A stretch of 64,000 nucleotides of DNA from a virus (IMGVR_UViG_3300014697_000001:160001-224000), one strand, 5' to 3'; numbered from the stretch's first letter, positions 18,773 through 57,310 are shown. Made by a program: numbers and translations. The notes: generated by a model from the sequence alone, not told the origin.

Positions 18773-18804
18773 GGGGAGGGCTTCGGCCCTCCCTTTATGC
18801 CGCC
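18773..18804 (+). terminator. Hairpin + TATGCC terminator of the head operon
   Basis: GGGAGGGC-TTCG-GCCCTCCC-TTTATGCCGCC. Confidence 0.75.
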
Positions 18805-18820
18805 TGTCTGGTTTATTCGA

Positions 18821-18854
18821 TTCCAATTTTTTTCAACGATACATGATAGCAGTG
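18821..18854 (+). promoter_or_regulatory. Putative phage early (vRNAP) promoter
   Basis: TTCCA-N14-TACATGAT-N5-TG; one of 8 exactly spaced copies. Confidence 0.7.
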
Positions 18855-18900
18855 ACAAGAGGAACTAATCCTCACTTACCAGTCCTTAGGAGGACACATA

Positions 18901-19182
18901 ATGCAACATGACATTGTTGAACTTCTGGATGCCATCAAATACGCCAAAGAGAACTTTGGTGACGATGAGTCTTCCAACCTGTTCTTCACCCGTAAGGAGA
19001 AAACCGACGCGTTCGGTTTTCCTTACCGCGAAGATAAGGTTAAGTTCGAGTGCGTCCTTATTCTCGCTACGGTCACTGGGACCAAGATCGAGATCAAGGT
19101 TATCGGGCTGGGTGACGACGTCCAGTTCCAGCGGGAATTCATCGCTGAGACTATCGCCACCCATCGGAAAGAGAGTGTCTAG
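18901..19182 (+). CDS. Early hypothetical protein
   Basis: 93 aa, AGGAGG RBS. Confidence 0.8.
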   Translation: MQHDIVELLDAIKYAKENFGDDESSNLFFTRKEKTDAFGFPYREDKVKFECVLILATVTGTKIEIKVIGLGDDVQFQREFIAETIATHRKESV

Positions 19183-19236
19183 CACACTCTCTCCAACCCC
19201 TTTACAAGTCACCGTTTCTAATTGAAGGACCCTATC

Positions 19237-19371
19237 ATGAAAGAATTTATGCTGATCGTCGTAGGCTTCACTGCAGGCTATTTGGCCAAAGCCAAGTTCG
19301 AGGAAACCAAGCGTCTCAAAGAAGAGAACGCCATCCTCAAAGCCCGTAACGAATCGAAGGAGAACAAATAA
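19237..19371 (+). CDS. 44-aa single-pass membrane protein
   Basis: MKEFMLIVVGFTAGYLAKAKFEETKRLKEENAILKARNESKENK; AAGGA RBS; below the ORF-track cutoff. Confidence 0.7.
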   Translation: MKEFMLIVVGFTAGYLAKAKFEETKRLKEENAILKARNESKENK

Positions 19372-19505
19372 TGGAAGGCTTCAATCCCCTGATCGATGCA
19401 GCAGTAGTGGGCGGCTTCATGGTTGTCCTGCTGGTGATGTCCTACGTTGGTCACCGTTATGACCAACACAAGAAAAGTAAACTGCGCGGCGCAACCCGCG
19501 TATAA
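19371..19505 (+). CDS. 44-aa single-pass membrane protein
   Basis: MEGFNPLIDAAVVGGFMVVLLVMSYVGHRYDQHKKSKLRGATRV; AAGGAG RBS; TAATG coupling to the previous ORF. Confidence 0.7.
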   Translation: MEGFNPLIDAAVVGGFMVVLLVMSYVGHRYDQHKKSKLRGATRV

Positions 19506-19544
19506 CCCGCTCCATCCAAACCAAAACCTGTAAGGAGTTACACC

Positions 19545-19796: not shown

Positions 19797-19806
19797 GCCC
19801 CTCTGG

Positions 19807-19835
19807 AAAAAGGACCTTCGGGTCCTTTTTTCTTT
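19807..19835 (+). terminator. Intrinsic terminator
   Basis: AAAAGGACC-TTCG-GGTCCTTTTTT. Confidence 0.85.
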
Positions 19836-19851
19836 GTCGTTTAAGATTCCA

Positions 19852-19980: not shown

Positions 19981-20448
19981 ATGAGCGACGCACTGAACAA
20001 AATCAACCAGCGCATCAAAGATCTGGCTACCAAGGTTGAAGAGTCCATCTCTTTCGACGACGACGGTGCAGCGACCCTGCCGGAAACCTTCCTCGCCGAC
20101 AACCTGATCGAAAGCCTCGACCTCGACACCGTCAAGCGTGTCCATGATGAAGAAGCCAACGTCGCTGCCGGTCTGGCCCTGGGTCTGGCCAACGCCACCC
20201 TGCCGCTGATGCAGAAGAAGAAGGACCTCGAGCGCACCAGCGCCCACCTGGGCTTCGGCCACAACACCATCAAGGCGTCCATCGACCGCAAGATCATGAC
20301 CCGCGCACCTGGCTCGACTGAAGAGAAGGAAAAGTGGGGCAACGTCGCAGTCAAGCTGGAATCCGGTGCCACCGCCAAGCGCGGCGACCTGAAGCGCGTC
20401 AACCTGGGCATCGCTGAAAACTACGCCAAAACCTTCGGCGGCAAGTAA
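19981..20448 (+). CDS. Hypothetical protein, likely highly expressed
   Basis: 155 aa, AGGAG RBS, strong C-ending codon bias. Confidence 0.85.
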   Translation: MSDALNKINQRIKDLATKVEESISFDDDGAATLPETFLADNLIESLDLDTVKRVHDEEANVAAGLALGLANATLPLMQKKKDLERTSAHLGFGHNTIKASIDRKIMTRAPGSTEEKEKWGNVAVKLESGATAKRGDLKRVNLGIAENYAKTFGGK

Positions 20449-20458
20449 GCCCATCTGG

Positions 20459-20490
20459 ATCAGACCTGGTACTTCGGTACCAGGTCTGAT
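20459..20490 (+). terminator. 14-bp stem UUCG hairpin (terminator or processing site)
   Basis: ATCAGACCTGGTAC-TTCG-GTACCAGGTCTGAT followed by TATGTTCCTTCTTTC. Confidence 0.7.
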
Positions 20491-20541
20491 TATGTTCCTT
20501 CTTTCTTTCGTTCCATTCCTCCACCTAAGGATCTGATTCAC

Positions 20542-21123: not shown

Positions 21124-21137
21124 TCAAGGGGTAGGCT

Positions 21138-21957: not shown

Positions 21958-21996
21958 GAGAGGGGCTTCGGCCCCTCTCCCTATTTCTTTTTGTTT
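21958..21996 (+). terminator. Intrinsic terminator
   Basis: GAGAGGGGC-TTCG-GCCCCTCTC followed by a T-rich tract. Confidence 0.8.
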
Positions 21997-21999
21997 CGA

Positions 22000-22033
22000 T
22001 TCCAATTTATTACAAGCATACATGATAGCGGTG
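22000..22033 (+). promoter_or_regulatory. Putative early promoter
   Basis: TTCCA-N14-TACATGAT-N5-TG, near-identical to the copy at 18821. Confidence 0.7.
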
Positions 22034-22064
22034 AACATACCCAACCTGCTACAGGAGCATCATC

Positions 22065-23105
22065 ATGTCTGCATCTCAAATCAAAGTTCGCTGTGAAAAC
22101 CATATTGCCATGCCTCGCACTGGCAAGGTTGTTGACTTCTACAACGCGCTTCAGGTCGCCGAAGGCATTTACTTTAAGCACGGGAGAATGGAGCGCCTCA
22201 ATGACAAAGAGATCTTTACCGTACTGCGGGTGAAACAGTCCAAATGTATCGCACGGGTCACTGCTGATAACGTGACCCCCGTGACATCGCGAGATGGGCG
22301 TTTGTTTTTCCTGAATGACTGGCCAGAAGAGGGCTTCATGTCAGTCGCGACTATCGAGCATAAGTTCTTTTTCGAACGTGTGATCCCTGATCCGTTAACA
22401 CCCCCTCAGTCCAACACCACCCAGATCGAAGATGCTCTGGATGAATTGGATGTTCCAGAACCCAACTACGATTACACTGTGGAGGTCAGTGGCGAGTTGA
22501 ACGAGCGTTACCAGATCCAGTTCCAGAATGAGCAGCAGGCCCAGATGCTCCGCTATCAAGAGACTGCCCCGTGGTACAAGGCAATCATGCAGATCATCGA
22601 TCGGATGGTACTGGGAAGCGAAAGCCGCCGGGTTAAGGTGACCTTGCATCCCAACATTCCGGGGTGCACAGACTATCACTACAATACCATCATCACCGTC
22701 GATGGTCAGCGGATCGGAACCATGCTGGTCAACGGTAAGATCGTTTCTGCCCCACACCTCGACAACAGCTCTGACCGCTTTGGTCTGAGCTTTTACGTGG
22801 AGTTGATCGGTGCAGGTCCTGAGGTGGTACGGGAGGCTTCACCAAAGGCGCCTGTGCGCGATTGGATTCCCCAGATGAACCAGTTCGTGAGGGTCGAAGG
22901 TGAAGACGAACTCTACGTCATCGCCGATTACGACCTGTATAAGAACATGTTCATCCTGACCATTGCTGACTCTGCACGGCGTGAACGTGAGGCCAGGCTC
23001 GGCGGCATGAGTGATCGTGACTACCGAATGGCACGTGCCAGCATGGAAGATCCACACATCCGCGTTGAACCGGGTCGTCTGCGTCCATTTACCCTGCGTT
23101 ACTGA
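22065..23105 (+). CDS. Early hypothetical protein
   Basis: 346 aa, AGGAG RBS, own promoter and terminator. Confidence 0.8.
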   Translation: MSASQIKVRCENHIAMPRTGKVVDFYNALQVAEGIYFKHGRMERLNDKEIFTVLRVKQSKCIARVTADNVTPVTSRDGRLFFLNDWPEEGFMSVATIEHKFFFERVIPDPLTPPQSNTTQIEDALDELDVPEPNYDYTVEVSGELNERYQIQFQNEQQAQMLRYQETAPWYKAIMQIIDRMVLGSESRRVKVTLHPNIPGCTDYHYNTIITVDGQRIGTMLVNGKIVSAPHLDNSSDRFGLSFYVELIGAGPEVVREASPKAPVRDWIPQMNQFVRVEGEDELYVIADYDLYKNMFILTIADSARREREARLGGMSDRDYRMARASMEDPHIRVEPGRLRPFTLRY

Positions 23106-23110
23106 CAGGC

Positions 23111-23162
23111 GGCATAGAGAGGGAGCTTGCGCTCCCTCTCTTAGCTGTTTCTTTTTTCTTTG
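23111..23162. terminator. Bidirectional terminator between convergent genes
   Basis: GGCATA-GAGAGGGAGC-TTGC-GCTCCCTCTC followed by a T-rich tract. Confidence 0.8.
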
Positions 23163-33953: not shown

Positions 33954-33956
33954 GAC

Positions 33957-33990
33957 GGCATAGAGAGGGGCGCTCGCCCCTCTCTATGTT
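33957..33990. terminator. Bidirectional hairpin/TATG terminator
   Basis: GGCATAGAGAGGGGCG-CT-CGCCCCTCTCTATGTT between convergent genes. Confidence 0.75.
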
Positions 33991-33995
33991 GGCCG

Positions 33996-35255
33996 TTACG
34001 TTTTACGGTAATGGTTCATGGTTACAGTCCGGATGACCAGGTATAGTACGATCCCGGTGCGGATGGATTTCATCAGCGAATCGTTCTTGGTCTTGACTGC
34101 CTTCTTCACCACATCGTAACCCACGTCCCTCATTTCCAGCAACAGATCGTTATTGGCACGAGAGGCGGTGTAAAGGTTACGGAGCTTCCCTAGCAGCGAG
34201 GCGATGTCCTTGGTGTTGATGCTGTTGCGGTTAGACGCAATGAAGTCAAACAAGTGCTCCAGGGTCAGGTCCACCAAACGGGTGACGTTGGGGTCACCTT
34301 TGAGCTTGGAGGAGTGTTTGGCCATGTACTCCAAGCACTCGAGCATGTTGTGCAAGGGCAGCTTGGGCATGGTGCCTGCGACGATCTCGGCAAGTTCCCG
34401 GATGATGAAACTGTTACGGTCTGCCATGACTTCGTCGAGGTAGCGGCGGTACGTGGAGTAGACGTTCTTGCGATTGCGGACCACAACCTCCCCATCCATA
34501 TTGATCGAGGTGTTAGAGGTGCTGCGGATCAATGCCGTAGGATCACGACGCACGATCTCGAACTCGTCGCGGATGTTCTTCAAGTAACCCTTGATCCGAC
34601 CTTGGATGTCGTTGACCATGTAGATGATGTCGTAGTCATCGTCAAACTGCTGAAACGTCTTTTGCTTGAAATGTGGGGAGTCCTTGGCCAAGGTAGCGGT
34701 GGCACGGTATTCCAACAAGGCACCCCAGCTTCCCAACTCCTTCAGTTTGTATTTCTTGGGGAGGCGAGCGTAGGTGGCTACCGCCACCGCCTCGTCGGCC
34801 TTATTGGGGAACCAGTAAGCCAATATGGAGGTGATGAACTTGTACTGCAACACCAACAGGGCATCGACCATGGCCTGTTGTTTTTCAGACTCAGTCAGCT
34901 TGGATCGGAAGATCGCATGGACCAGCCAAAGGCACGACAGGTTCATGACGTTGGTCGATACGAAACGGACCTTCTTGGGGTCGGGTACCAGAGTGCTCAA
35001 TTCCAGCAGTTCATCCTGCAGGGAGACATCATCGATGTCCATCACGCTGGTGAACCATTCCAACTGATCGGTGCGGGTGAAACGAACGTCCTGTACGCCC
35101 ATCAAATGTCCGCCGAAGAAAGCCACATGGTCTTCATTCTTGTTGGCGAAGTTTTGGCGGTACGTCTGCAGGCGCCGAATAAACTGGCGGTCGATGGTGA
35201 TGTGTTGACATGCCGCATCAAACAACGACTTCACGTTAGGGGGAGGCGTGGCCAT
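33996..35255 (-). CDS. Conserved virion-associated protein of phiKZ-like phages
   Basis: About 419 aa, helical, FFGGHLMGV motif, AGGA RBS; convergent with terminase. Confidence 0.6.
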   Translation of the reverse strand: MATPPPNVKSLFDAACQHITIDRQFIRRLQTYRQNFANKNEDHVAFFGGHLMGVQDVRFTRTDQLEWFTSVMDIDDVSLQDELLELSTLVPDPKKVRFVSTNVMNLSCLWLVHAIFRSKLTESEKQQAMVDALLVLQYKFITSILAYWFPNKADEAVAVATYARLPKKYKLKELGSWGALLEYRATATLAKDSPHFKQKTFQQFDDDYDIIYMVNDIQGRIKGYLKNIRDEFEIVRRDPTALIRSTSNTSINMDGEVVVRNRKNVYSTYRRYLDEVMADRNSFIIRELAEIVAGTMPKLPLHNMLECLEYMAKHSSKLKGDPNVTRLVDLTLEHLFDFIASNRNSINTKDIASLLGKLRNLYTASRANNDLLLEMRDVGYDVVKKAVKTKNDSLMKSIRTGIVLYLVIRTVTMNHYRKT

Positions 35256-35302
35256 GATAAGTCCTGCTGTGAAAATCAAAGGTGAATATCATACCGATAC
35301 GA

Positions 35303-35336
35303 ATGGAATATTCTTCAACCCTACATGATCCAGGTG
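35303..35336 (+). promoter_or_regulatory. Putative early promoter
   Basis: TTCAACCC-TACATGAT-N5-TG. Confidence 0.65.
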
Positions 35337-35368
35337 AATATAACCCAAAATCGTAAGGAGATTTACCC

Positions 35369-36443: not shown

Positions 36444-36905
36444 TTCATCTGACATAAAGCCCCTATACAGTCCCTCTCGAAGGCTGTATAGGGGTACTTT
36501 ATCGGGTGATCTTTTTTCTTTTACAATAGGGTCCATATTGGTATAGGTGTTCATTTCCGCATCTGATCTAAGGGGGGTGGAAATGGGCCAGTAGAGTTCG
36601 TTCTGTGTAGTTAATATCTGGGGGGTTTGGAGACTACTGATTTGCGATCCTGTAGCGTAGCGTAAGGGAGACAAATCATCATTGCTGGTGCTCTTAAGAG
36701 GGCTTCGCCCTCTATATACACTAAGTAAAACATATAACCATACCATTAATGGATACCGTAATTTATTACGATCCATCGGTAAGTTCAGGACCGACTGAGA
36801 TCAGCGTGAGCGAGATCGAAGGAGGAGTTCTCCCAACTTACCAGCTTCGGGCTGGTTATTTATGTTGCTTCACTGAAATCGTATGGACTACTTACCGGAG
36901 TGATC

Positions 36906-38670: not shown

Positions 38671-38706
38671 TAGGGGAGGGGCGACTGCCCCTCCCCGTTA
38701 TGCCGC
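38671..38706 (+). terminator. Hairpin + TATGCC terminator
   Basis: GGGGAGGGGC-GACT-GCCCCTCCCC-GTTATGCCGC. Confidence 0.7.
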
Positions 38707-38722
38707 TTGCATGAAAATTCGA

Positions 38723-38756
38723 TTCGAAATAATTTCAACCCTACATAGTACTCGTG
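38723..38756 (+). promoter_or_regulatory. Putative early promoter
   Basis: TTCGA-N14-TACATAGT-N5-TG. Confidence 0.65.
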
Positions 38757-38808
38757 ACATGGCAGAATAATCTACCTGTCTAACCATGATCTATCTAGGA
38801 GATCCACC

Positions 38809-39183
38809 ATGAGCATCGCCACTATGAAAGCCGAACTGACCGCCGCCGTTGAGAACGTGGTTGCTGGCCGTAAAGTTTCAGACCTTCTGAAAGACCGTGC
38901 CAACCGCCTGCTGGCTGTGAGTTCCAAGTACTACAACGAAGAGACCCTCGATAACGACATCATCGAGAAAGTCATCGAGACCTTCAAAGCCAATCCGGAG
39001 TTGGGTAGTCACGACATGACTGTGGTCGATGGTGTCATCTATCCGGTCATGATGGATGAGGCAGAAGGCAATCAGGTCATCGATCAACTCGGTGAAATGC
39101 TTGACCTGTACGAACCTCATCAGTCTGCTACTCTGGCCTTTGTCATCCGCTGGACGTCGGAAGGTTACTTCAAAGCTGCATAA
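38809..39183 (+). CDS. Early hypothetical protein (acidic)
   Basis: 124 aa, AGGAG RBS. Confidence 0.8.
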   Translation: MSIATMKAELTAAVENVVAGRKVSDLLKDRANRLLAVSSKYYNEETLDNDIIEKVIETFKANPELGSHDMTVVDGVIYPVMMDEAEGNQVIDQLGEMLDLYEPHQSATLAFVIRWTSEGYFKAA

Positions 39184-39255
39184 CCCTTCCTCAACCGCTG
39201 CACCCAGGGTAGGACGTCCTACCCTGGCTACCCCATTCCCGTAAGGAGCTTTACC

Positions 39256-39645
39256 ATGAACTTCGCTACCATTATCGACACCATCGACATGTTGATCATC
39301 GTCGCTACCGTGTTGTTCGTTTTTATCATCCCACCGATCAAGGGCTATCCGAAAGGTGAAGCTCTCACCGCCCAGAATCTGAAGGAGTTCTTCCTGGGCT
39401 ATGCGTACGGTTACAGCCAGTCGGTCTACAAAGGCTTTGTCAGCAACGGCAAGCTGCGGATCGGTCGTACCCTGTTCCAGATCGCATTCACTATCGGTGT
39501 CTACCTCATCGGCCTTGAACTCTATGCTGCCGCTCAGGTGATTATCATCGCCCTGGCCGCACCACTGAGCCTTTTCCCTGAACCGAAACTCTCGGCAATG
39601 GAGAAAGTCATGCTGGATCTTGATATCTCCATGAAGGTCCACTGA
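39256..39645 (+). CDS. Early membrane protein
   Basis: 129 aa with about 3 hydrophobic segments, TAAGGAG RBS. Confidence 0.8.
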   Translation: MNFATIIDTIDMLIIVATVLFVFIIPPIKGYPKGEALTAQNLKEFFLGYAYGYSQSVYKGFVSNGKLRIGRTLFQIAFTIGVYLIGLELYAAAQVIIIALAAPLSLFPEPKLSAMEKVMLDLDISMKVH

Positions 39646-39650
39646 CCGAC

Positions 39651-39699
39651 GGCATAGAGAGGGAGCGCAAGCTCCCTCTCTTAGCTGTTTCTTTTTTTC
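39651..39699. repeat. Terminator; near-exact copy of 23111-23159
   Basis: GGCATAGAGAGGGAGC-GCAA-GCTCCCTCTCTTAGCTGTTTCTTTTTT. Confidence 0.85.
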
Positions 39700-39731
39700 T
39701 AATCCGTAAAGAAATACGACAACGACTCATA

Positions 39732-39842: not shown

Positions 39843-39886
39843 GGCATAGAGAGGGGCGTGACGCCCCTCTCCACTACTTTTTCTTT
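39843..39886. terminator. GGCATA-hairpin terminator
   Basis: GGCATAGAGAGGGGCG-TGA-CGCCCCTCTC followed by a T-rich tract. Confidence 0.75.
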
Positions 39887-39887: not shown

Positions 39888-40715
39888 TCATCTCCGGGAC
39901 CCAACAGTATAGCGTAGGAGTCTGCGATGCTGATCGCGGTTTGCCATCACCCCGCGCTTGCGCCATTCATCCCGCAGGTATTCCTTGTACATTGTGGCAG
40001 CGTCGGCATAGGAGTCGACGACTTCACGAATCCGGCCCAGCGAAGCACCGCCTCGGATTGCACCTTCGTCCAATGGAATGATGGTACGGTTGTAGATGTA
40101 CGCCTTGGTAGCCAGAATGCACAGTTCGGAGAAAGCATCCGAATAGCTCATGGGGAGGTTAGCGAGGTTCGGATCGTGGGCAACCATACAGCGCAGGTAC
40201 ATAATGCCTGGCACCCGGTTCATGTTGGTGACCATGACCACGTTATCTGCTACCAGTGTGCAGTACGCCGACTGCACCTGTGTCCAGGCGGCATTCGACT
40301 GCATGAGCCCGGCAGCCGCTTCCAGTACCATCGAACGGTCTTCGGAGATCACCCCAACATTTCCGAGAGTATGACCTTGACCATAACTGAGTCCATAGAC
40401 TTCGGTGATGCTTCGCCCTTGAGTCAGTTCTTTATCGATGGTGTAGACCATTGTCCAGTTATCGACCCGCTCACTCTTGACATTTAGCATCGGGATGAAC
40501 ACCTCAACCCCCGAACAGAGGTTGATATCGATCATCACCTTACCCTCAATGATCTGGCGACGAATGATGGTGTCCATGCTGACGCCGGTGCTGTAGTCGC
40601 GAATCAGACCATTCTTCGACGGGTCATAGCGAGTCGGGGAAAAGGTGTAGCGCAACACTTCTGGCGGGATTTCAAACTTGATGGTGTCAAGTGCCCGCGA
40701 TAGATGATCGACCAT
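39888..40715 (-). CDS. Conserved protein, putative neck/head-tail adaptor
   Basis: 275 aa, AGGAGA RBS; C-terminal LATKAYIY...IRGGASLG...YKEYL resembles T4 gp13-type neck proteins. Confidence 0.5.
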   Translation of the reverse strand: MVDHLSRALDTIKFEIPPEVLRYTFSPTRYDPSKNGLIRDYSTGVSMDTIIRRQIIEGKVMIDINLCSGVEVFIPMLNVKSERVDNWTMVYTIDKELTQGRSITEVYGLSYGQGHTLGNVGVISEDRSMVLEAAAGLMQSNAAWTQVQSAYCTLVADNVVMVTNMNRVPGIMYLRCMVAHDPNLANLPMSYSDAFSELCILATKAYIYNRTIIPLDEGAIRGGASLGRIREVVDSYADAATMYKEYLRDEWRKRGVMANRDQHRRLLRYTVGSRR

Positions 40716-40847: not shown

Positions 40848-41831
40848 ATGTCCCAAGGTCTTTCTACTCGTCCTGTCGGCCAAGTGCGTATCTATGCGTG
40901 TGGCGGTGGCGGCATCAACATCGGTCGTGACTACCTGACCCCCGGTCATTCGGCAGACATTGCTGACTTCCAAGTGGCTTTCGTCGACACCTCCGACTCC
41001 AACCTCACCGACGGCCTGGAGAACAACACCTGGCTGTTCAAGGACCTCGACGGTTCCGGTAAGATCCGCAACAGCAACGACAAAGTAATTGCCAAGGCAG
41101 TGCCTGACATCCTGCGTAAGTTCGCTCCGGCTGACATGAACATCGTGATCTTCACGGCGTCGGGTGGTACGGGTTCGGTCGCCGGCCCGCTGATCCTCAA
41201 GCAGCTGCTGGAAGACGGTCACCAGGCCGTCGGTATCGTCACCGGTTCTCACGAGTCCATCAAGACTGCCGAGAACACCATCGGTACCATCAAGTCGCTC
41301 GATGCCATCGGTCGCATGACCAACAAGCCGGTGGTTATCCACTTCGGCATGAACCGTCCGAATGTGCCACGCTCCTCGATCGACCGTGAAGCCCACCTGA
41401 TGATCAACGCCCTGGCAATCCTGTGCAGCCGCCGTAACCACGGCCTGGACACTGCCGACATCGCCAGCTTCCTGCAGTTCAACAAGTCGTCCGATATCCC
41501 GGCGTGCCTGGCTCGTATCCACCTGTTCGATGACATCGATCAGTTCGAGAAAGTCCTGACCGACCCGATCTCGGCTGCTTACCTCAAGCGCGAGCAGGAT
41601 GATCCTCAGCCGAATGTCTTCGTGCCTTACAGCTGCGATGGCTTCATGCCGTCGTTTGCTCAAACGTCGAAGAGCCTGTTCTTCGGTATCGAAAACCACT
41701 CCTTCGGTGCCCTGGCGCAGGAACTCGAAGGCCTGAAGAAGGAGATGGAGATGCAGCGTAAAACCCGCTCTCAAGCTGTCTCGTTCTTCAGTGACAGCGA
41801 TGACGTGTCCACTACCGGACTCGTGCTCTAA
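40848..41831 (+). CDS. phuZ: Phage tubulin PhuZ
   Basis: CGGGGINIG, DTS, GSGK, tubulin signature SGGTGS, T7 loop LDTAD and acidic C-terminal DDVSTTGLVL; 327 aa. Confidence 0.95.
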   Translation: MSQGLSTRPVGQVRIYACGGGGINIGRDYLTPGHSADIADFQVAFVDTSDSNLTDGLENNTWLFKDLDGSGKIRNSNDKVIAKAVPDILRKFAPADMNIVIFTASGGTGSVAGPLILKQLLEDGHQAVGIVTGSHESIKTAENTIGTIKSLDAIGRMTNKPVVIHFGMNRPNVPRSSIDREAHLMINALAILCSRRNHGLDTADIASFLQFNKSSDIPACLARIHLFDDIDQFEKVLTDPISAAYLKREQDDPQPNVFVPYSCDGFMPSFAQTSKSLFFGIENHSFGALAQELEGLKKEMEMQRKTRSQAVSFFSDSDDVSTTGLVL

Positions 41832-41840: not shown

Positions 41841-41875
41841 GACAGCGGGAGCAATCCCGCTGTCCTTATGCCGCC
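41841..41875 (+). terminator. Hairpin + TATGCC
   Basis: GACAGCGGGA-GCAA-TCCCGCTGTC-CTTATGCCGCC. Confidence 0.7.
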
Positions 41876-43508: not shown

Positions 43509-43555
43509 AGAGGGAGGACCTAGGTCCTCCCTCTTACTTTTCTTTTTATGCCGCC
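43509..43555 (+). terminator. Palindromic terminator with U-tract and TATGCC
   Basis: AGAGGGAGGACCTAGGTCCTCCCTCT-TACTTTTCTTTTTATGCCGCC. Confidence 0.8.
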
Positions 43556-47984: not shown

Positions 47985-48024
47985 AGGAGCTCTCTCTATG
48001 AGAGCTCCTACTTATTTCTTTTTC
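47985..48024 (+). terminator. Hairpin/terminator
   Basis: AGGAGCTCTC-TCTAT-GAGAGCTCCT followed by a T-rich tract. Confidence 0.65.
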
Positions 48025-50327: not shown

Positions 50328-50336
50328 AGGTGCACC

Positions 50337-50564
50337 ATGATAAACTCTCCATTGTTTGCCGCCACTGAGCTCAGCGGTATCTTCTCAAATCACGCAGGAT
50401 CGAAAAGGCCAAAGACCCGTTCGATCACCGTGAAACATGGGTTCACCAGCACCACCGTTGAAATCCCAGAGGTGGTTGAGCTTGATGAATTGCTGAGTAT
50501 CTTGGGACACTCGGTGAGACCACTTGACAGTGACTTGTCAGAGGTTCTCTTGGCCATGACATAA
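50337..50564 (+). CDS. Small hypothetical protein
   Basis: 75 aa, AAGGTG RBS. Confidence 0.55.
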   Translation: MINSPLFAATELSGIFSNHAGSKRPKTRSITVKHGFTSTTVEIPEVVELDELLSILGHSVRPLDSDLSEVLLAMT

Positions 50565-50571
50565 GCCAGAC

Positions 50572-50606
50572 GGCATAAGGAGGGGCCTCAGCCCCTCTCT
50601 ATGTCC
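50572..50606. terminator. Bidirectional GGCATA/TATG hairpin
   Basis: GGCATAAGGAGGGGC-CTCA-GCCCCTCTCTATGTCC between convergent genes. Confidence 0.7.
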
Positions 50607-51713
50607 TTATAGGTAAGGTTCGATGTGTTCGGCTATAAACCCGGCCACATAGTCGGCAACATTGGCCGGTACCTGGTTGACCAGGTACTTTCCAGACTGT
50701 GCTTCCTTAAGGCTTCGACGGATACGGTTTTTATCCGAATCGTTCTTGGCGTTAGAGCTTACTGCATCGAACTTAAGCAACATGGCAATGACTGGGAGTC
50801 TCGCGATGGTCAGCGCCCAGATCGCCTGGTTGGTGTAAGCAATGTCGGGCATCCGGACTGTCTGAAGCAGGTTGTCCTGACCGAACACGGGAGTGTTACT
50901 CAGGATGTCCTTGTAGAAGCTGGTCTGACTGCTGAACTTGTTGACAATTTCACCCAACCCCTTCGTCAAGCGAGGCCAGAGGTCTGTGGTGAAGAACGGC
51001 ATCGCCGAATCGATCTTGGTGTACTGCTCAGCTCCCAGCAAATGATGCGTGGTGTTGAGAACTGCCACATCCAGATGACTGGATAGCATATTCGGGATGA
51101 TGACTTGTGTGATAAAATGAGCAGCCGGCAGGGTATGGCCTTCAGGGGCCATGGTGCGCACCGCCATGCGCCAGAGATGATACTGACAGGCCAACAGCGG
51201 GATGTTCAATTCCAGCACGCTCATGGCGCCGTCGGGAAGCCCCTTGAACTCGGCTGTCCCATCTAGCTCAATGATACCACACCCCATCACCGGATGGCTC
51301 AGGACCCGAATGGGTGACATGTCCCGCCAGCCAAACCAGATCTGTGCTGGTGTCAGGTTATCATCGGTCACAGCGATGATGATCTCATTGACTCCCTTGC
51401 CGTAGAACTGACTCTTGGTATTGACTCGTCCGTGGTGGGCTGCGTTGCAGAAACCCATTTGTCCAGCCAGTCGGTTAACGATACTGCTGACTTGTAGATA
51501 ATAGTCGGGGAGATCACCGTCAAATGGAATGTCGATCAGGCCGAGGATCTTAAGGAGTACATGGTCACTTTTGAGGTAGCCTGGGTTCATTGCCCGGTAC
51601 TGTTTATAGCGCTCTACCTGAGTACCCATCAGTTCACGCTTGACGTAATCCAGCCCGAAGACCGTGGTGTTCGTCTGGCGCAACAGCTGGTCGGAGTTAA
51701 AAAGCGTGTACAT
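50607..51713 (-). CDS. Conserved protein (phiKZ gp52-like)
   Basis: 368 aa, AAGGA RBS; inverted gene between DNA polymerase and chimallin, as in phiKZ-like phages. Confidence 0.65.
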   Translation of the reverse strand: MYTLFNSDQLLRQTNTTVFGLDYVKRELMGTQVERYKQYRAMNPGYLKSDHVLLKILGLIDIPFDGDLPDYYLQVSSIVNRLAGQMGFCNAAHHGRVNTKSQFYGKGVNEIIIAVTDDNLTPAQIWFGWRDMSPIRVLSHPVMGCGIIELDGTAEFKGLPDGAMSVLELNIPLLACQYHLWRMAVRTMAPEGHTLPAAHFITQVIIPNMLSSHLDVAVLNTTHHLLGAEQYTKIDSAMPFFTTDLWPRLTKGLGEIVNKFSSQTSFYKDILSNTPVFGQDNLLQTVRMPDIAYTNQAIWALTIARLPVIAMLLKFDAVSSNAKNDSDKNRIRRSLKEAQSGKYLVNQVPANVADYVAGFIAEHIEPYL

Positions 51714-51928: not shown

Positions 51929-51962
51929 TTCAAACAATTCATGGCGCTATATAATCCACGTG
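51929..51962 (+). promoter_or_regulatory. Putative early promoter of chimallin
   Basis: TTCAA-N14-TATATAAT-N5-TG. Confidence 0.65.
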
Positions 51963-52022: not shown

Positions 52023-53933
52023 ATGGCAGTTCAAGATAGCCACGACAACAGCAACAACTCTCAGGCACAGGACCCGTCCTACGAACCGGCTAACAGCCGT
52101 TCGTCCCGTCCGACCCCTCAGGAAAACCCGGTCCTGAACGCTGGTCTGCTGGATATCAACCGTCTGCTCGGCAGCCCGATGTCCCGTCGCACCAGCGGTG
52201 AATCCCTGGTCAACGCCATCAAGGCCGCTAAGTTCTGGTTCTCGGCCGAGCGTCAAGTAGCCGGTGCCGCTGCCATCGACCTGACCAAGATCCAAGTGCT
52301 GGGTCTGGACGGTCAGGAAAACAACGTCAGCATCTCCTCGGTGATCCTGGCGTACCCGATCGAAGATCAGGGCGTTACCAAGGTACTGGTTCACTCGCTG
52401 GTGCTGGAAGGCACGCTGAGCGACGAAACCCCGATCCGCAACGTCGAGATCAACCATCGCACCTACCCGCTGCCGATCATCGCTTCGGATTACGTGACCG
52501 AGTCGTACCTCGCCCTCATCGACGACATCGTCAAGAAGGCATTCGACCAGTCCCGTCGTTCCGTCGAAGTGATCCGTGGCGGCTGGCGTGTGGTTGACCG
52601 CAAGGTCGACTTCAACGATCCGGAAACTACCGAAGCGCGTCAGGTCATCTTCTACGCGCAGGCGGCTCTGTCCTCGATGTACAACGAGCTGTACCGCAAC
52701 GACATGTTCTTCAGCCTCGAGTGGCTCAACAAGCAGTCTACCCTCGAGATCAACGTCGACATGTCCGGCCGTGAAAGCGTCTCCGCCGACGGTCTGCCCC
52801 GCCGCAGCGACATCGCGGTATCGGTTGCAGGTACCGTTCGCAAGGGCGACCAGAACGTCACCGTGCCTCTGGCCAACCTGGGCGGTTACATGAACATCGT
52901 GTACACCCCGCCGCAGAACGAAGAGCGTTGGGCTCGTGACCGTCGTCGCGATCAGCCGTACTTCACCCCGACGTACATCATCAACCGCATGGACACCAGC
53001 GGCAACGCCATCACCCCGGAGCTCCTGCTCCTGGCACTGGCATCGTCCTCGGTGATCTCCAAGAACCAAGCGTGGGCCCGTACCTTCCTGCCGGGCGAAG
53101 TTGCCCGTGGTGAGATCGATGCTCGCGACAGCGGTCTGCTGAACATTCTCGGCCCGGATGAAGATCCGCAACCGATCGTGTTCGACAACCGTGGTTCGCT
53201 GGACGAAGAGAAGTGGGGTCAGTACTTCTTCAGTCTGGTCGATGAAAACCTGGTATACGCAATCGAGCTGGAAGAAGGTGGCGACAACAGCTGGCTGACC
53301 AGCCTGCTGCTGGATGCTGCAGACGACACTTCGGCCAACCGCGAAGCTGTTCGCCGTCTGTACGACTACGCTGACCGCCTGACTTCGGGCAACTTCAGCC
53401 GTCGTGCTCAAGAGCTGGGCGTAGAAAACCCGCTCGTGATGTCCGGTGCCCGTTACCTGACTGGTACCTGGCTGGACGAGAAGGGCAACGAGCGCGATCT
53501 GCGCGAATGGGACCTGCTCCGTTGGATGGCGCAGAACCCGAACGATGGTGGTGAAAGCGCCCTGCGTTATCAGGACGTGATCGACCGCACTGACCTGGAC
53601 GTGGAAATCCGCGTATCTGAGCAGTTCGACCAGCTGACCGGCGCCCTGCAGCAGAACGTCAAGTTCTCCCGCTACGTCGACCTGGCCTTCATCAACCCGC
53701 ACTTCATCGAAGCGCTGGCACTGGCGGTGGCCGATTGCAAGATCAACATCGATCAGCGTCAAGCTCACTTCACCTTCGGTGCTCGTCGTCTGCGTGGCAA
53801 CACTCGCATTCGCGACTTCCGTGGTGGCGATCTGACCCACGGTCTGCTGAACAGCCGTCGTGTGGTTAATGGCGATCAGCGCAGCCTGCGCAGCCATGTG
53901 AGCAACGGCTTCGGTCGCGGTTCGTCGTTCTAA
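52023..53933 (+). CDS. chmA: Chimallin, major phage-nucleus shell protein
   Basis: 636 aa, AAGGAG RBS, very strong codon bias, disordered termini and GLPRRSD motif; immediately upstream of nvRNAP beta-prime (phiKZ gp54 position). Confidence 0.85.
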   Translation: MAVQDSHDNSNNSQAQDPSYEPANSRSSRPTPQENPVLNAGLLDINRLLGSPMSRRTSGESLVNAIKAAKFWFSAERQVAGAAAIDLTKIQVLGLDGQENNVSISSVILAYPIEDQGVTKVLVHSLVLEGTLSDETPIRNVEINHRTYPLPIIASDYVTESYLALIDDIVKKAFDQSRRSVEVIRGGWRVVDRKVDFNDPETTEARQVIFYAQAALSSMYNELYRNDMFFSLEWLNKQSTLEINVDMSGRESVSADGLPRRSDIAVSVAGTVRKGDQNVTVPLANLGGYMNIVYTPPQNEERWARDRRRDQPYFTPTYIINRMDTSGNAITPELLLLALASSSVISKNQAWARTFLPGEVARGEIDARDSGLLNILGPDEDPQPIVFDNRGSLDEEKWGQYFFSLVDENLVYAIELEEGGDNSWLTSLLLDAADDTSANREAVRRLYDYADRLTSGNFSRRAQELGVENPLVMSGARYLTGTWLDEKGNERDLREWDLLRWMAQNPNDGGESALRYQDVIDRTDLDVEIRVSEQFDQLTGALQQNVKFSRYVDLAFINPHFIEALALAVADCKINIDQRQAHFTFGARRLRGNTRIRDFRGGDLTHGLLNSRRVVNGDQRSLRSHVSNGFGRGSSF

Positions 53934-53944: not shown

Positions 53945-53980
53945 AGAGAGGGGGAGCTCCGGCTCCCCCGATCTATGCCC
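53945..53980 (+). terminator. Hairpin + TATGCC after chimallin
   Basis: GGGGGAGC-TCCG-GCTCCCCC-GATCTATGCCC. Confidence 0.65.
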
Positions 53981-54030
53981 TTTCCATTAATTTTTATACT
54001 CACCAATAACCGCCAATAAAGGTACTGTAC

Positions 54031-55500
54031 ATGGCCATCAAAGAACGCAATGGCATTTACCTGAGTGTGGTCAACTACGACGACATCTTCCGTCATCAGG
54101 CGCATCCTGCGATCCTCATGAACGAGTTCAACATCGATCTGGAAGCCGATCGTCTTGAGCTTAATAACCTGATCTATGCCAGCCTTGACGGCGATTCGCT
54201 GAACAACACCGCCAGCTGTGACTGCGGTTCCATTGTCGGCATGGACAATTACAACATCCGTTGCAATAACTGCTTATCGCTGGTTGTCCCGGTTACCGAG
54301 AAGCCTCTGGAGTCTATCCTCTGGCTCAAAGCACCAGCGGGCATTAAAGCATTCATTAACCTTACGGTGTGGCGGATTCTGTCAAAGAACCTCAGCCATT
54401 CTAATTTCAACATCCTCGAGTACCTGACCAATCCCCGTTATCAACCGGCTGCTCCATTGGCTGCCGACAAGATGCGTAAACTTGAACGGCTCGAGATCCC
54501 ACGCGGCTACAACCACTTCATCGAGAACTATGAAGCCATCCTGGTTGCCCTGGCCAAGGCGTCACTGATTGGTCCGTCTGCCAGTGCACGGAAACGCCGC
54601 AAGATCATGCGCTTCCTTCAGGAGAATTTCGACCGGACGTTCTCCGAACACCTGCCATTTCCTACTCGCCTTGGCTTTATCCGCGAGTCGTCCAATAACC
54701 GGATCGTGTCCGACCCAAAGATGGTCCCGGCCATCGATGCGGCACACATCCTCATCGGTATCGACAACCGCGAAAACGCGGAGAACCAGCCCAAGCTTCC
54801 ACAGGCCAACAAAGAAGCGCGGATGGTCAATGCCCTCAATAACTTCAGCGAGTACTATAAGTCGTTCGAGTCTGAGGTCATCTTTAAGAAGCCTGGGATC
54901 ATGCGTAAGCTGATCTATGGTACCCGGCCATACTGGGGATTCCGTTCGGTCATCACCTCCCGGCAAAAGCCACATCGTCAAGATGGCCTGGAGATGCCAT
55001 GGTCGCTAAGTATCTTGTTGTTCAAGGTCCATCTGCAAAATAAGCTCATGGCGCGGGGCTATACACCCAACGAAATGAATGCCCTGATCTACGAGAACAC
55101 GTTGCGCTACCACCCGGATCTGCACAACCTGCTCAACGAACTGCTGAAGGAGTCACCCACCGGGACTATCCCCACGCTCTTTGGTCGTAACCCTACCCTC
55201 ACCCGAGGCAGTATCGGTTACAACCAGATCGATACATTCAAGACCGACCCGACCGACAACACCGTCAGCATGAGTCCCTTGAACCTGATCGATAAGAACG
55301 CTGACTTTGACGGCGATGCGCTATGGGGTGAGTTGCCACTGGATAAGAAGAACGATAAAGTAATGAGTCGATTCGATCCAGTGACCGGTATCATGGACCT
55401 CAACAAACCGTTCACAGTTTCCCGTAACACCACCTTGCCGCCACCACTGATTGCCAGCATGACGAACTGGCTGATCGAAGGTGACCAGGTTTCACGATAA
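54031..55500 (+). CDS. Non-virion RNA polymerase beta-prime N-terminal subunit (phiKZ gp55-56.1-like)
   Basis: Zn-binding CDCG...CNNC, KPGIMRK, RSVIT, RNPTL and catalytic NADFDGD. Confidence 0.93.
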   Translation: MAIKERNGIYLSVVNYDDIFRHQAHPAILMNEFNIDLEADRLELNNLIYASLDGDSLNNTASCDCGSIVGMDNYNIRCNNCLSLVVPVTEKPLESILWLKAPAGIKAFINLTVWRILSKNLSHSNFNILEYLTNPRYQPAAPLAADKMRKLERLEIPRGYNHFIENYEAILVALAKASLIGPSASARKRRKIMRFLQENFDRTFSEHLPFPTRLGFIRESSNNRIVSDPKMVPAIDAAHILIGIDNRENAENQPKLPQANKEARMVNALNNFSEYYKSFESEVIFKKPGIMRKLIYGTRPYWGFRSVITSRQKPHRQDGLEMPWSLSILLFKVHLQNKLMARGYTPNEMNALIYENTLRYHPDLHNLLNELLKESPTGTIPTLFGRNPTLTRGSIGYNQIDTFKTDPTDNTVSMSPLNLIDKNADFDGDALWGELPLDKKNDKVMSRFDPVTGIMDLNKPFTVSRNTTLPPPLIASMTNWLIEGDQVSR

Positions 55501-55554
55501 GGAGCAACTTATCATCCTACTCACCCATTCTCACAAAGGGGGCTAAGTCTCAAC

Positions 55555-56178
55555 ATGGCTATTGCAATGTATGCGGACGAGTCGGAATTTCGGTCGATGC
55601 ACTATGGGCTTCCGAAGTCAGAGGACCGGGCTGCCATTCGAAGCCGACTGGAGAACACAGCACGTTCCTTCGGGTTGATGGGCAGTGACCTGTATAACCG
55701 CGCCGTTGAGCGATTCGAGTCGTTTGACTTTGATCGCATCGAGCGCAAGGTCGATGCACTGAAACGTAAAGTCACCCACCTCTTCGACAAGGATTCCATC
55801 CGCCCGATGTCGAAGATTGGTCAATTCCAGCAAGCCGGCCCGGAACAGGCTCGCTGGCTCATGGCCAACCCACGGGCAAAGCAGTTGTTTGAGAAGGACA
55901 TGATGAATGGCTGGAGGGGTTTCCTCAAGCATGAAAATCGTGGCCGGATCGGCGAAGATGACCCTGATTACCAGGAAGTCACTAACGGACTGCTGCAATT
56001 CGATGAGCACGGCCACTCCAAGTTCGTCGAGTACTTGCATCTGTATGACTCTGATGGACGGACTCAGTTGACGTTTGCCGACCAGGTCACCATCCGTGAC
56101 TCCATGTGGGCCAATTTCAACACCTTCCTCGATGAAGGTTTGGACGACCCGAGTGATCCGGATAACGGCTCGCTTTGA
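55555..56178 (+). CDS. Conserved protein (phiKZ gp59-like)
   Basis: 207 aa with WLMANP, GEDDPDYQEVTNG and terminal DPSD...L; synteny. Confidence 0.6.
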   Translation: MAIAMYADESEFRSMHYGLPKSEDRAAIRSRLENTARSFGLMGSDLYNRAVERFESFDFDRIERKVDALKRKVTHLFDKDSIRPMSKIGQFQQAGPEQARWLMANPRAKQLFEKDMMNGWRGFLKHENRGRIGEDDPDYQEVTNGLLQFDEHGHSKFVEYLHLYDSDGRTQLTFADQVTIRDSMWANFNTFLDEGLDDPSDPDNGSL

Positions 56179-56268
56179 CTGATAGGGTGACACACCTGCC
56201 GATTGGTATGTGTGTCACCCCTTCCGTTACTGCCACCGCAATCCTTTTTCTTTGTCGGAGTCTTCCCC

Positions 56269-56709
56269 ATGTCCCGTGTGATTCCCGTCCTAGGCCCAGC
56301 AGGCTTCGCTTCTGACCTGACCATTAAAGCCGATGAGGCCATGGCCAACTTCTATATCACGCAGAAGTCTCAGTCGGACATGTACCGTGGGTCCCTGGTC
56401 AGTCTAGGGGCCATCATCAGTCGGTTTGGTAACAATCCAATTGAGCTGCAGAACGAGACTTACCGCGTCTTGCAGTCTTATTTTGAGCGTCAGTTTGATG
56501 CCGTAGATCTGAACGTCAACGCTGTCACGAAAGGGAACAGTATTGATTTACAGATCAGTGTTATCTTACGAGACGGAGACAAGAGCATTGACATTGTTCA
56601 CGTGGTAACATCCACGGACTCACGTATCCGTAGCATCATCGATTTACAAAACAACGGCCGGCCTTTCATCCCGGCTGATACCTTTAATGTACAAGGAGCT
56701 TCACTGTGA
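56269..56709 (+). CDS. Conserved hypothetical protein (phiKZ gp62-like)
   Basis: 146 aa, GGAG RBS, SQS..Y.G...SL motif; synteny. Confidence 0.6.
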   Translation: MSRVIPVLGPAGFASDLTIKADEAMANFYITQKSQSDMYRGSLVSLGAIISRFGNNPIELQNETYRVLQSYFERQFDAVDLNVNAVTKGNSIDLQISVILRDGDKSIDIVHVVTSTDSRIRSIIDLQNNGRPFIPADTFNVQGASL

Positions 56710-57263
56710 CCGAGCAAACCAAAGATCAGATCATCGCTGACCTCGAAGCGCGCGTAGCCACCCTCGAGTCCACCCTGATCGCCACCAACGATGCGCTTAC
56801 CAACATCCAGCGCTCCATCGTCGAACTGACTGCCGATCATGTTCAGCGTGTCTTCAACGATGACGTCCTGGTCGACTCCATCGCTCACCGCATCATGGTT
56901 GCTGGCGCCAACGCTATCTCCCACAAGGTCAAGTCTTCCAAGCAGCGCGCTCCCGAGCTGGTGGTAGTGGAAGGTTACGTCCCAGGCGCTATCCGTGTTA
57001 CCCTGACCGGCGACGGCACCGTGATCGAAGAGCAGACCGAAGACGGCCAGTGGGTCTCCGGCGACGCCATCTCCGAAGAGCTGCGCCAGCCGCACGTGGT
57101 CACCGTGTTTGGCGACCTGGTTGTCTCCTACGGCGGTCAGCTGGACCGTGCTTACTACGTGCTGGAATCCACCCACCTGGAAGAGTTCCGTCGTCAGACC
57201 TCGGCTCAGGCCATGGAAGTTACCCGCACTGTTGAAGAAGCAGCTGCTGAAACCATCCAGTAA
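56706..57263 (+). CDS. Hypothetical protein with N-terminal coiled coil
   Basis: 185 aa, AAGGAG RBS, strong codon bias. Confidence 0.8.
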   Translation: MTEQTKDQIIADLEARVATLESTLIATNDALTNIQRSIVELTADHVQRVFNDDVLVDSIAHRIMVAGANAISHKVKSSKQRAPELVVVEGYVPGAIRVTLTGDGTVIEEQTEDGQWVSGDAISEELRQPHVVTVFGDLVVSYGGQLDRAYYVLESTHLEEFRRQTSAQAMEVTRTVEEAAAETIQ

Positions 57264-57310
57264 GACGGCATAATGGGGCGGGTTAACCCGCCCTGTTCGA
57301 GGATATAGCC

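Follow-up and report, generated by a model that had tools for sequence, protein, structure and literature searches.

Hairpin elements at gene ends in the window

The stretch of DNA analyzed here (the window, 64,000 nt) is a piece of a 250.5-kb phiKZ-like Pseudomonas phage genome with 53% GC, which encodes vRNAP, nvRNAP, and chimallin. PHROG matches in the genome are to RNAP beta subunits, a nuclear shell protein, a tail sheath, and a terminase, and the phage is of the phiKZ-like kind with both virion and non-virion multisubunit RNA polymerases. Its closest relative is Pseudomonas phage pPa_SNUABM_DT01 (DT01; protein identity, 58%). GC-rich hairpins with a TATG box, a T-rich tail, or a different tail on each strand recur along the window, as do copies of an early-type promoter motif (Table 1). 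An Rfam search of the 64-kb window at the gathering score gave no matches.

Table 1. Hairpin elements and early-type promoter motifs, numbered from the first nucleotide of the window
Position	Strand	Element	Context	DT01 ortholog
542..583	-	T-tail hairpin, 12 bp, -21.9 kcal/mol	End of 2096-aa structural gene	Kept
18774..18804	+	Hairpin, 8 bp, -17.4 kcal/mol, TTTATGCCGCC box	15 nt past stop of gene 17520-18758; early-type promoter next	
18815..18864	+	Early-type promoter motif	Counterpart of phiKZ early promoter	
19807..19846	+	T-tail hairpin	Closes first part of early unit beginning 18815	
20459..20497	+	Hairpin, 14 bp, -24.6 kcal/mol, TATGTTC box	Downstream of gene 19981-20448	Hairpin and TTTATGCCC kept
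21958..21994	+	T-tail hairpin, 9 bp, -18.6 kcal/mol	Directly upstream of early-type promoter at 21994	
21994-22043, 35297-35346, 38717-38766		Further early-type promoter copies	Variant near 51930	
23108..23162	.	Two-faced candidate terminator cassette; plus: hairpin and T-rich tail; minus: hairpin and TATGCCGCC	Convergent junction; plus: early unit (gene 22065-23105); minus: virion structural and tail sheath operon; one of a near-identical set of five in the genome (~55 nt each)	Both sides kept
33955..33992	.	Palindromic CATA-hairpin-TATG, 13 bp, -24.8 kcal/mol; TATGTT toward plus gene, TATGCCG toward minus gene; T-run on neither side	Terminase (plus) on one side, gene 33996-35255 (minus) on the other	
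36840..36866	+	Weak hairpin, 6 bp, -8.8 kcal/mol, TATTTATGTT	Marginal member	
38673..38707	+	Hairpin, 10 bp, -23.6 kcal/mol, GTTATGCCGCT box	CATA at 5' side; early-type promoter next	
39648..39702	.	Second ~55-nt two-faced cassette copy of the window; plus: T-rich tail; minus: TATGCCGTC	Plus: early unit 38809-39645	
39843..39886	.	Back-up two-faced hairpin, 10 bp, -19.3 kcal/mol; plus: T-rich tail; minus: TATGCCGAG box	Minus-side box serves gene 39888-40715 (minus, conserved phrog_3179)	
41841..41875	+	Hairpin, 10 bp, -19.2 kcal/mol, CTTATGCCGCC box	9 nt past gene 40848-41831	
43509..43555	+	Hairpin, 11 bp, -21.4 kcal/mol, T-run; TATGCCGCC box 12 nt past stem	Two tail types in series	
50570..50606	.	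Hairpin, 7 bp, -13.2 kcal/mol; plus: TCTATGTCC; minus: CTTATGCCGTC	Convergent junction; minus: gene 50607-51713	
53950..53980	+	Hairpin, 8 bp, -18.4 kcal/mol, GATCTATGCCC	Downstream of chimallin gene (52023-53933)	TATT, then T-rich stretch
57265..57293	-	Hairpin, 7 bp, -14.5 kcal/mol, TATGCCGTC box, antisense side only	Between two plus-strand genes	Boxes on both sides

A preliminary description of this DNA had pointed to GC hairpins beside TATGCC, GGCATA, or TATGT variants. Such a hairpin adjoins all five plus-strand TATGCC sites (18796, 38699, 41867, 43547, and 53974), all six GGCATA sites (23111, 33957, 39651, 39843, 50572, and 57267), and all four TATGT variants (20491, 33985, 36861, and 50600). 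Two sites need qualification: at 43547, a T-run separates the stem from the box, and at 36861, the hairpin is weak. The stems at the remaining sites have 7 to 14 bp and folding energies of -13 to -25 kcal/mol. The two-sided layout described for 23111 and the 39651/39843 pair is also present. On the plus side, genes with the early-type promoter motif (window 21994 and 38717) end at a hairpin plus T-rich tail. Those on the minus side, the virion structural and tail sheath operon and a conserved core gene, respectively, end at a hairpin plus TATGCCG.

A conserved box replaces the U-tract

By plain count, TATGCC is not unusual in the window (27 versus 20.6 expected), and a simple scan for a hairpin plus T-run found no excess. 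Yet 10 of these 27 start within -4 to +5 nt of a strong stem end, the interval of our adjacency test, where 0.13 would be expected (P = 6e-17); the signal is thus the adjacency. The same holds genome-wide for TATG (77/963 at strong stem ends; 4.7 expected) and TATGCCG (22/48; 0.23 expected), and the genome-wide count of TATGCC that the preliminary description had proposed came to 27 of 113. The reversed control GTAT is found there in 13 of 1,344 cases, and TATGA and TATGG, with four each genome-wide, are barely enriched. TATG occurs on at least one side of 56 of the 84 intergenic strong hairpins, compared with 2 of 38 intragenic ones.

The box consensus is YY-TAT-G-Y-Y-G, mostly TTATGCCG in the studied phage. 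In a matrix anchored on TAT, the next position is G in 74 of 91, then C/T, C/T, and G; the base after TATG in hairpin-adjacent boxes is C in 48, T in 33, A in 4, and G in 6 (n = 91). The position weight matrix is the same in the studied genome, DT01, and phiKZ, and it equals the published consensus. The stem arms are GC-rich pyrimidine and purine runs of 7 to 14 bp (e.g., GGGAGGG/CCCTCCC and AGAGAGGG/CCCTCTCT), as in the phiKZ type, and the phiKZ-type box, Y-TTAT-K-Y-Y-G-T, lies directly 3' of the stem, with stem-to-TATG spacing from -4 to +5 nt.

Could these be ordinary intrinsic terminators, in which TTAT is a short U-tract and the other positions hitch-hike or extend the stem, with no polymerase-specific reading? 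The phiKZ sites have been classed as intrinsic by ARNold (PMC10914365), and overall, phiKZ tails are rich in T. TATG-box tails in the studied genome (53% GC), however, usually hold only 2 to 4 T in the best 8-nt window, and the class lacks a canonical U-tract (about 6 to 8 U) directly past the hairpin. The pairing of CATA with TATG merely lengthens the stem in 19 hairpins, but the box is one-sided in 37, so it is no stem extension at those. The conservation of the box G at position 4 and of YYG in three phages of 37 to 56% GC, together with the retention of tail class by side in DT01, also speaks against this account, which we consider quite improbable.

Placement relative to genes

Genes were called with our own crude caller, which gave 87% coding and missed at least one real gene. 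On this map, strong hairpins occupy 20/21 convergent, 0/21 divergent, and 55/204 tandem gaps. The corresponding figures are 19/21 convergent and 1/20 divergent in DT01, whose counts and those of the studied genome are not independent of each other, and 19/20 and 2/19 in phiKZ. The hairpins lie mostly 1 to 20 nt past a stop codon, and the phiKZ-type placement, at gene 3' ends and two-way between convergent genes, is found here. TATG stands on both sides at 12 convergent junctions, which indicates part of a stop signal rather than mainly a promoter, and on one side at nine. Among tandem gaps, 23 have a sense-side box, and about 10 have it on the antisense side only; a simple sense terminator leaves the latter (e.g., 57267) unexplained.

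This placement bears on whether the hairpin only ends the upstream transcript, the adjacent TATG (G = +1) being mainly the late promoter of the next gene. TATG with G at +1 is the proven core of the phiKZ late promoter, at which downstream sequence matters (PMC4666361), and the tandem-gap box usually lies on the sense side, 20 to 110 nt upstream of the next start. At 43547, it follows a complete hairpin and T-run, like a separate module. A late promoter would have TATG upstream of and toward the gene it serves. Many tandem sites have this arrangement. The 21 convergent junctions do not: there, the box is aimed at the 3' end of the gene on the opposite strand, and DT01 keeps this layout. Divergent gaps, which need promoters and not terminators, are free of such hairpins; the base after TATG near gene starts there is a purine about as often as a pyrimidine, and the YYG extension is missing. 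In addition, an early-type promoter belonging to the next gene directly follows the box at six or more sites, and TATGA and TATGG are not enriched at stems. Such stopping and restarting is therefore possible but unlikely as the main role: the context statistics argue for a stop signal and disfavor a mainly promoter function.

Placement also bears on a DNA-level element, such as a cruciform, a recombination or replication signal, or a dispersed mobile palindrome, that has nothing to do with transcription. The palindromes are perfect, and the five near-identical ~55-nt cassettes, all at the same kind of junction genome-wide, have the loop flipped between copies. Outside this cassette, however, the stems are all different, the sites lie strictly past stop codons and never in divergent gaps, and the asymmetric tails track gene direction; we regard a DNA-level role as highly improbable. 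A dispersed repeat of the REP or MITE kind was considered and rejected: instead of many copies, there are stems that nearly all differ and a single repeated cassette.

Two tail classes track promoter class

Besides the TATG boxes, the genome has a separate T-tail class with canonical U-tracts (21 sites). The first strong hairpin past an early-type promoter has a T-rich tail in 13 cases and TATG only in 3, compared with 30 and 92 at other gene ends (Fisher p = 1.6e-5); in 11 early units, the first hairpin has neither tail type. Fifteen of the 21 T-rich tails lie no more than 3.2 kb downstream of an early motif, and in each of the three phages, the tails of early units contain more T (p = 0.0013, 0.003, and 0.035). 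The minus-strand genes, which presumably are read by the non-virion RNA polymerase, have no early motif, and their tails are TATG in 22 cases and T-rich in 2. There are exceptions: the chimallin gene has an early-type promoter yet ends at a TATGCC box, and the 2096-aa structural gene is late yet has a T-run. The split is thus statistical, with T-rich tails mostly closing early units and TATG tails mostly closing the rest.

At orthologous DT01 junctions, the hairpin is kept in 23 of 33 cases and the tail class by side in 35 of 46, with only one TATG-to-U switch. Orthologous stem arms are about 50% identical between the two phages; the stems have turned over, but the TATG side and the T-rich side have stayed.

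These results partly support the overall interpretation in the preliminary description. Gene-end placement and adjacency enrichment support a terminator-type element in which a TATG box replaces the U-tract. The proposal of two codes, perhaps one per polymerase, gains from the strong enrichment of T-rich tails at the ends of early-motif units and from the side-specific layout kept in DT01, but it does not hold as a strict rule, given the exceptions.

Proposed mechanism of termination

We consider it likely that the elements are phiKZ-type transcription terminators with two tail dialects that track promoter class; by analogy with the relatives, RNA 3' ends would form at the hairpin-box sites. 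Each terminator would consist of a GC-rich RNA hairpin 1 to 20 nt past the stop codon and, within 0 to 3 nt, the conserved box in place of a U-tract. Because the stem is palindromic, a single hairpin can serve both strands, and at convergent junctions each arriving polymerase would meet its own tail. Most units that start from an early (virion-RNAP-type) promoter motif would end in T-rich tails, and most of the rest, with nearly all minus-strand genes among them, in TATG-box tails.

Alternatively, a host or phage endoribonuclease might cut at or past the UAUG box, with the hairpin shielding the new 3' end, in which case the mapped 3' ends of the relatives would be processed ends rather than termination points. 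The 3' end mapping in relatives is compatible with processing, and ONT-cappable-seq 3' ends by themselves cannot separate it from termination. A single-stranded, A/U-containing box beside a stable hairpin is also a common layout of endonuclease sites, but we know of no nuclease with UAUG-box specificity. At convergent junctions, precisely the places that call for a stop to polymerases, the box acts on either strand. Eight terminators of 201phi2-1, drawn from several motif classes, have been assayed in vivo with a reporter trap (PMC11512511). On balance, processing seems a rather poor prospect.

How might a TATG box help to terminate transcription? Speculatively, it could be a sequence-specific pause signal for the non-virion RNA polymerase. 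Structural work shows that a pocket in phiKZ GP123, a beta-like subunit, binds the non-template-strand TATG at late promoters (PMC12809450). If this pocket also bound the box during elongation, transcription could halt long enough for the hairpin to free the transcript, and a weak rU:dA hybrid would not be needed. The GP123 ortholog in the studied phage has 8 of 14 pocket residues identical and one more that is aromatic-conservative, at an overall identity of 29%. Counting against such a pause, the transcribing complex is reported to have an incomplete pocket (PMC12809450). The spread in stem-to-TATG spacing is loose for a fixed pause-to-hairpin geometry.

Comparison with known systems

The box shares its four letters with the phiKZ late promoter core TATG (Yakunina et al. 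2015, PMC4666361), and the GP123 ortholog keeps most of the residues of the pocket that reads it (PMC12809450). Unlike that promoter, the box beside hairpins is conserved beyond these four letters (Y ahead of them, Y-Y-G behind), aims into opposing genes at convergent junctions, and is absent from divergent promoter regions. With canonical intrinsic (Rho-independent) terminators, the elements share a GC hairpin just past the stop codon. The T-tail class fits that description, including two-way forms with an A-rich 5' side, whereas the TATG-box class has a conserved G and Y-Y-G instead of a weak-hybrid U-tract. The class II pause/termination signal of T7 RNAP is sequence-specific and hairpin-independent. 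It resembles the box in concept, a short specific sequence telling a phage polymerase to pause or stop, but our elements always have a hairpin, the polymerase is multisubunit, and the sequences are unrelated.

The closest match is to the relatives. The phiKZ terminator motif is a stem-loop followed by TTATKYYGT, for which ONT-cappable-seq located 61 sites (Putzeys et al. 2024, PMC10914365); in 201phi2-1, motif A (n = 59) is found at mapped RNA 3' ends (PMC11512511). Both have a pyrimidine/purine-run GC hairpin immediately followed by Y-TTAT-K-Y-Y-G-T, gene-end sites that include two-way ones between convergent genes, and the same multisubunit RNA polymerase pair in their lineage; a matrix built from phiKZ hairpin flanks fits both the published consensus (PMC10914365) and the box of the studied genome. 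In contrast to these phages, whose 3' ends were mapped, ours is known from sequence alone. It is also GC-richer, with a box of TTATGCCG(Y)C that contains few T and so cannot pass as a U-tract, and its T-rich tails form a clearly distinct second class that follows early-promoter units. The match to the published gene-end signal means that the finding, though real, belongs to a known kind, and the terminator family itself is already published, not new. The added point is that T-rich tails stand mostly on early gene units and TATG tails on the remaining units.

Hairpins followed by a TATG box

We read the GC hairpins of this phage as sites of hairpin-dependent 3' end formation with a sequence-specific tail, based on their anatomy, gene context, and conservation, as well as published mapping in relatives. 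The tail is a TATGCC(G)- or other TATG-type box directly after the hairpin, in place of a U-tract. The preliminary description had drawn attention to these hairpins, and it proved correct at each coordinate it named. Folding gives stems of 7-14 bp and -13 to -25 kcal/mol at these sites, except for a weak hairpin at 36840-36856; at 43547, a T-run lies between stem and box, and the box is 12 nt past the stem.

The raw count of TATGCC in the window is unremarkable (27 versus 20.6 expected), and generic promoter and terminator scans of the window gave no excess; the signal becomes visible only once adjacency to a stem is tested. In the window, 10 of the 27 TATGCC start -4 to +5 nt from the end of a strong stem, where 0.13 are expected. 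The genome-wide count of hairpin-adjacent boxes, which the preliminary description had proposed as a check, bears out its observation, with 77 of 963 TATG (4.7 expected) and 22 of 48 TATGCCG (0.23 expected); TATGA and TATGG are barely enriched at stem ends genome-wide. Among strong intergenic hairpins (n = 84), TATG is present on at least one side in 56 and on both sides in 19, and among hairpins inside genes in 2 of 38. Chance is thus rejected as an explanation. Two other candidates are rejected as the main reading: pure stem extension, because the box is one-sided in 37 cases, and a mobile repeat, because the stems differ.

Genomes compared and gene calling

The 64-kb window spans bases 160001-224000 of a single 250,515-bp contig with 52.8% GC. 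PHROG matches to a virion RNA polymerase (RNAP) beta subunit, tail sheath, terminase, DNA polymerase, nuclear shell protein (chimallin), and non-virion RNAP subunit identify the source virus, by homology, as a phiKZ-like nucleus-forming jumbo phage. A megablast search of a phage collection with 6 kb of the sequence returned no match. By protein search with the virion RNAP (vRNAP) subunit, the nearest record is Pseudomonas phage pPa_SNUABM_DT01 (DT01; 75% identity), and phiKZ stands at 39%. The whole genomes of this phage, DT01, and phiKZ were compared, with genes called in all three by a simple self-trained codon-usage caller (247, 282, and 348 genes). The caller is crude: it passed over a 547-aa open reading frame (ORF), window 6935-8578 (+). 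In DT01, the corresponding place is annotated as a virion RNAP beta/beta' subunit immediately preceding the gene of the large vRNAP subunit, and the ORF is therefore probably genuine. One or two of the "divergent gaps" used below are therefore artefacts, which leaves the absence of hairpins from divergent gaps unchanged. The two ends of the contig share ~100 bases (genome 1-~100 and 250,390-250,515), and the same promoter match occurs at genome 22 and 250414; this resembles an overlap left by the assembly of a genome that is circularly permuted or terminally redundant.

The box travels with gene ends

In phiKZ, TATG is the late-promoter core, with its G as +1 (PMC4666361), and the alternative raised in the preliminary description, that the box is a promoter that re-initiates transcription, was therefore worth testing. 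Gene context decides against this as the main role. In this phage, strong hairpins are found in 20 of 21 convergent, 0 of 21 divergent, and 55 of 204 tandem gaps; the corresponding counts are 19 of 21 convergent and 1 of 20 divergent gaps in DT01, and 19 of 20 and 2 of 19 in phiKZ. TATG is present on both sides of 12 convergent junctions and on one side of 9, and a box there runs into the opposing gene from its 3' end, a place with no use for a promoter. Divergent gaps carry hairpin-free TATG 25-60 nt ahead of starts, and the base that follows is A or G about as commonly as C or T; after hairpin-adjacent TATG, it is C or T in 81 of 91. At no fewer than six sites (at least six), an early-type promoter for the next gene lies directly past the box. 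Gap placement, flanking bases, and separate promoters therefore argue that the box travels with the gene end, and a promoter-only main reading is rejected on the convergent and divergent gap statistics. A restart role is conceivable at some tandem sites, where the box may double as a promoter. About 10 tandem sites have the box on the antisense side only (e.g., 57267), and these boxes may stop antisense transcription; in the phiKZ study, 9% of terminators lie antisense (PMC10914365).

Conservation in DT01

Proteins of this phage and DT01 have a median identity of 58%, and 112 adjacent gene pairs are syntenic. Of these junctions, 23 have a hairpin in both phages, 6 in this phage only, 4 in DT01 only, and 79 in neither. 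The stem arms are only ~50% identical, with pairing retained. The tail class agrees at 35 of 46 sides (14 TAT[GT] in both, 6 T-rich in both, and 15 with neither in both), and a change between TATG and T-rich is seen just once. DT01 retains the two-sided TATG of the convergent junctions at genome 8105, 83708, 96353, and 158380, as well as the asymmetric form, with GGCATA (the reverse complement of TATGCC) on the left and a T-run on the right, at genome 70239, 183106, and 225306. Such a pattern is expected of a functional structure whose tail is sequence-specific.

Two features lie beside the DNA polymerase gene. Just upstream of it, between two plus-strand genes, a 10-bp hairpin at window 47985-48009 has T-runs on both sides, forming a two-way T-tail terminator that is conserved in DT01. 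From the end of the gene to the terminator hairpin at 50580, ~250 nt (window 50328-50579) hold no called gene; the stretch is a long 3' untranslated region or else contains a small ORF that the caller missed.

Tail classes in early and other units

The genome carries ~15 copies of a long conserved motif built of the blocks GATTC-AA, TTTCAAC, ATACATGATAG, and a final GTGA; every copy is on the plus strand, 25-45 nt ahead of a start codon, and DT01 has ~14 copies. The motif is laid out like the phiKZ early promoter; for the latter, k-mer enrichment gave the core TATATTAC, with 24 copies, all on the plus strand. Given this parallel, we treat the motif as early and vRNAP-type by homology, and its copies are probably the vRNAP early promoters of this phage.

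Positions of two-faced cassettes and early-type promoter motifs
Feature	Position	Strand	Remark
~55-nt cassettes	window 23108-23162, 39648-39702; genome 70239, 75950, 235312	both strands read	near-identical
Early-type promoter motif	window 18815-18864, 21994-22043, 35297-35346, 38717-38766	+	variant near 51930

In this phage and DT01 together, the first strong hairpin downstream of an early-type promoter is T-rich in 13 cases and TATG-only in 3, versus 30 T-rich and 92 TATG at all other gene ends (Fisher p = 1.6e-5). In AT-rich phiKZ, the tail classes blur and the class table is uninformative, so that only the T-count test is usable; early units have more T in the 16-nt tail than the rest in all three phages (10 versus 6, 8 versus 6, and 9 versus 8; p = 0.0013, 0.003, and 0.035). 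T-rich tails fall ≤3.2 kb downstream of an early motif in 15 of 21 cases. Minus-strand genes never have the early motif, and they end in TATG 22 times and in a T-rich tail twice. There are exceptions: chimallin has an early-type promoter variant yet ends in a TATGCC box, a 2096-aa structural gene ends in a T-run, and in 11 early units the first hairpin met has neither tail.

Both classes occur together in five cassettes, two-faced terminators placed between an early unit and a minus-strand gene running toward it. The early side reads as hairpin plus T-rich tail and the opposite side as hairpin plus TATGCCG; the early-side genes have no PHROG family, and those facing them are conserved core genes or virion genes. 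The cassettes are alike up to a sharp boundary at either end. Three copies have GCAA as their 4-nt loop and the other two have the reverse complement, TTGC, as though a perfect palindrome had been inverted.

The preliminary description had suggested two codes on one hairpin, perhaps one per phage polymerase. The tail statistics and the cassettes argue for two codes; that there is one per polymerase is not proven. The pairing of early units with T-rich tails and other units with TATG, for which the support is statistical, is the part that we did not find in the literature, with no mention in the available portions of the phiKZ and 201phi2-1 transcriptome papers (PMC10914365, PMC11512511).

How the tail might be read

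In a 2026 structure, GP123, the beta-like subunit of the phiKZ non-virion RNAP, holds non-template-strand TATG in a pocket (PMC12809450). The GP123 ortholog of this phage (genome 102275-103909, outside the window) has 29% overall identity, with 8 of the 14 named pocket residues identical and one aromatic swap, Y406 to F. We propose that the same pocket would grip the box during elongation, and that the gripped box would pause the non-virion RNAP over the hairpin and so stand in for the U-tract. Two points speak against such a pause: the pocket is described as incomplete in the transcribing complex (PMC12809450), and the distance from stem to TATG ranges from -4 to +5 nt. It is also possible that nuclease processing makes the 3' ends, or that this is plain short-U-tract termination. 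The genome is GC-rich, and therefore the conserved tail cannot pass for a U-tract; sequence-specific reading can thus be tested more cleanly on templates from this phage and from DT01, its cultured relative, than on those from phiKZ.

It is tempting to combine the pocket with the tail classes into polymerase-specific stop dialects, a proposal that we hold tentatively and consider rather unlikely. The injected vRNAP would stop at a hairpin plus T-run and the non-virion RNAP at a hairpin plus TATGYYG, pausing by means of the late-promoter TATG pocket, and the two-faced cassettes would shield early units from late operons running toward them, each face carrying one code. Jumbo phages of the phiKZ group use two unusual RNA polymerases, and the box bears on how these stop. 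If the pairing is confirmed, it would provide a simple rule for annotating transcription units across this phage family, as well as orthogonal terminator parts for phage engineering.

Relation to known terminators

A matrix of all hairpin-adjacent cases, aligned on TAT, gives the box pattern Y-Y-TAT-G-Y-Y-G, with G at the fourth position in 74 of 91 cases. The same pattern is found in DT01 and in phiKZ, where T is favoured over C. The published phiKZ terminator consensus is a stem-loop followed by a TTAT region (…BYTTATKYYGT), from 61 termination regions mapped by ONT-cappable-seq (PMC10914365), and the same motif was recovered in 201phi2-1 as motif A (n = 59; PMC11512511). A comparison of the window with Rfam returned no family. 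The terminator reading put forward in the preliminary description is supported and already published for relatives. The box of this phage matches the conserved phiKZ terminator, and therefore the element itself is already described: judged by its motif, it is the local form of a known terminator family.
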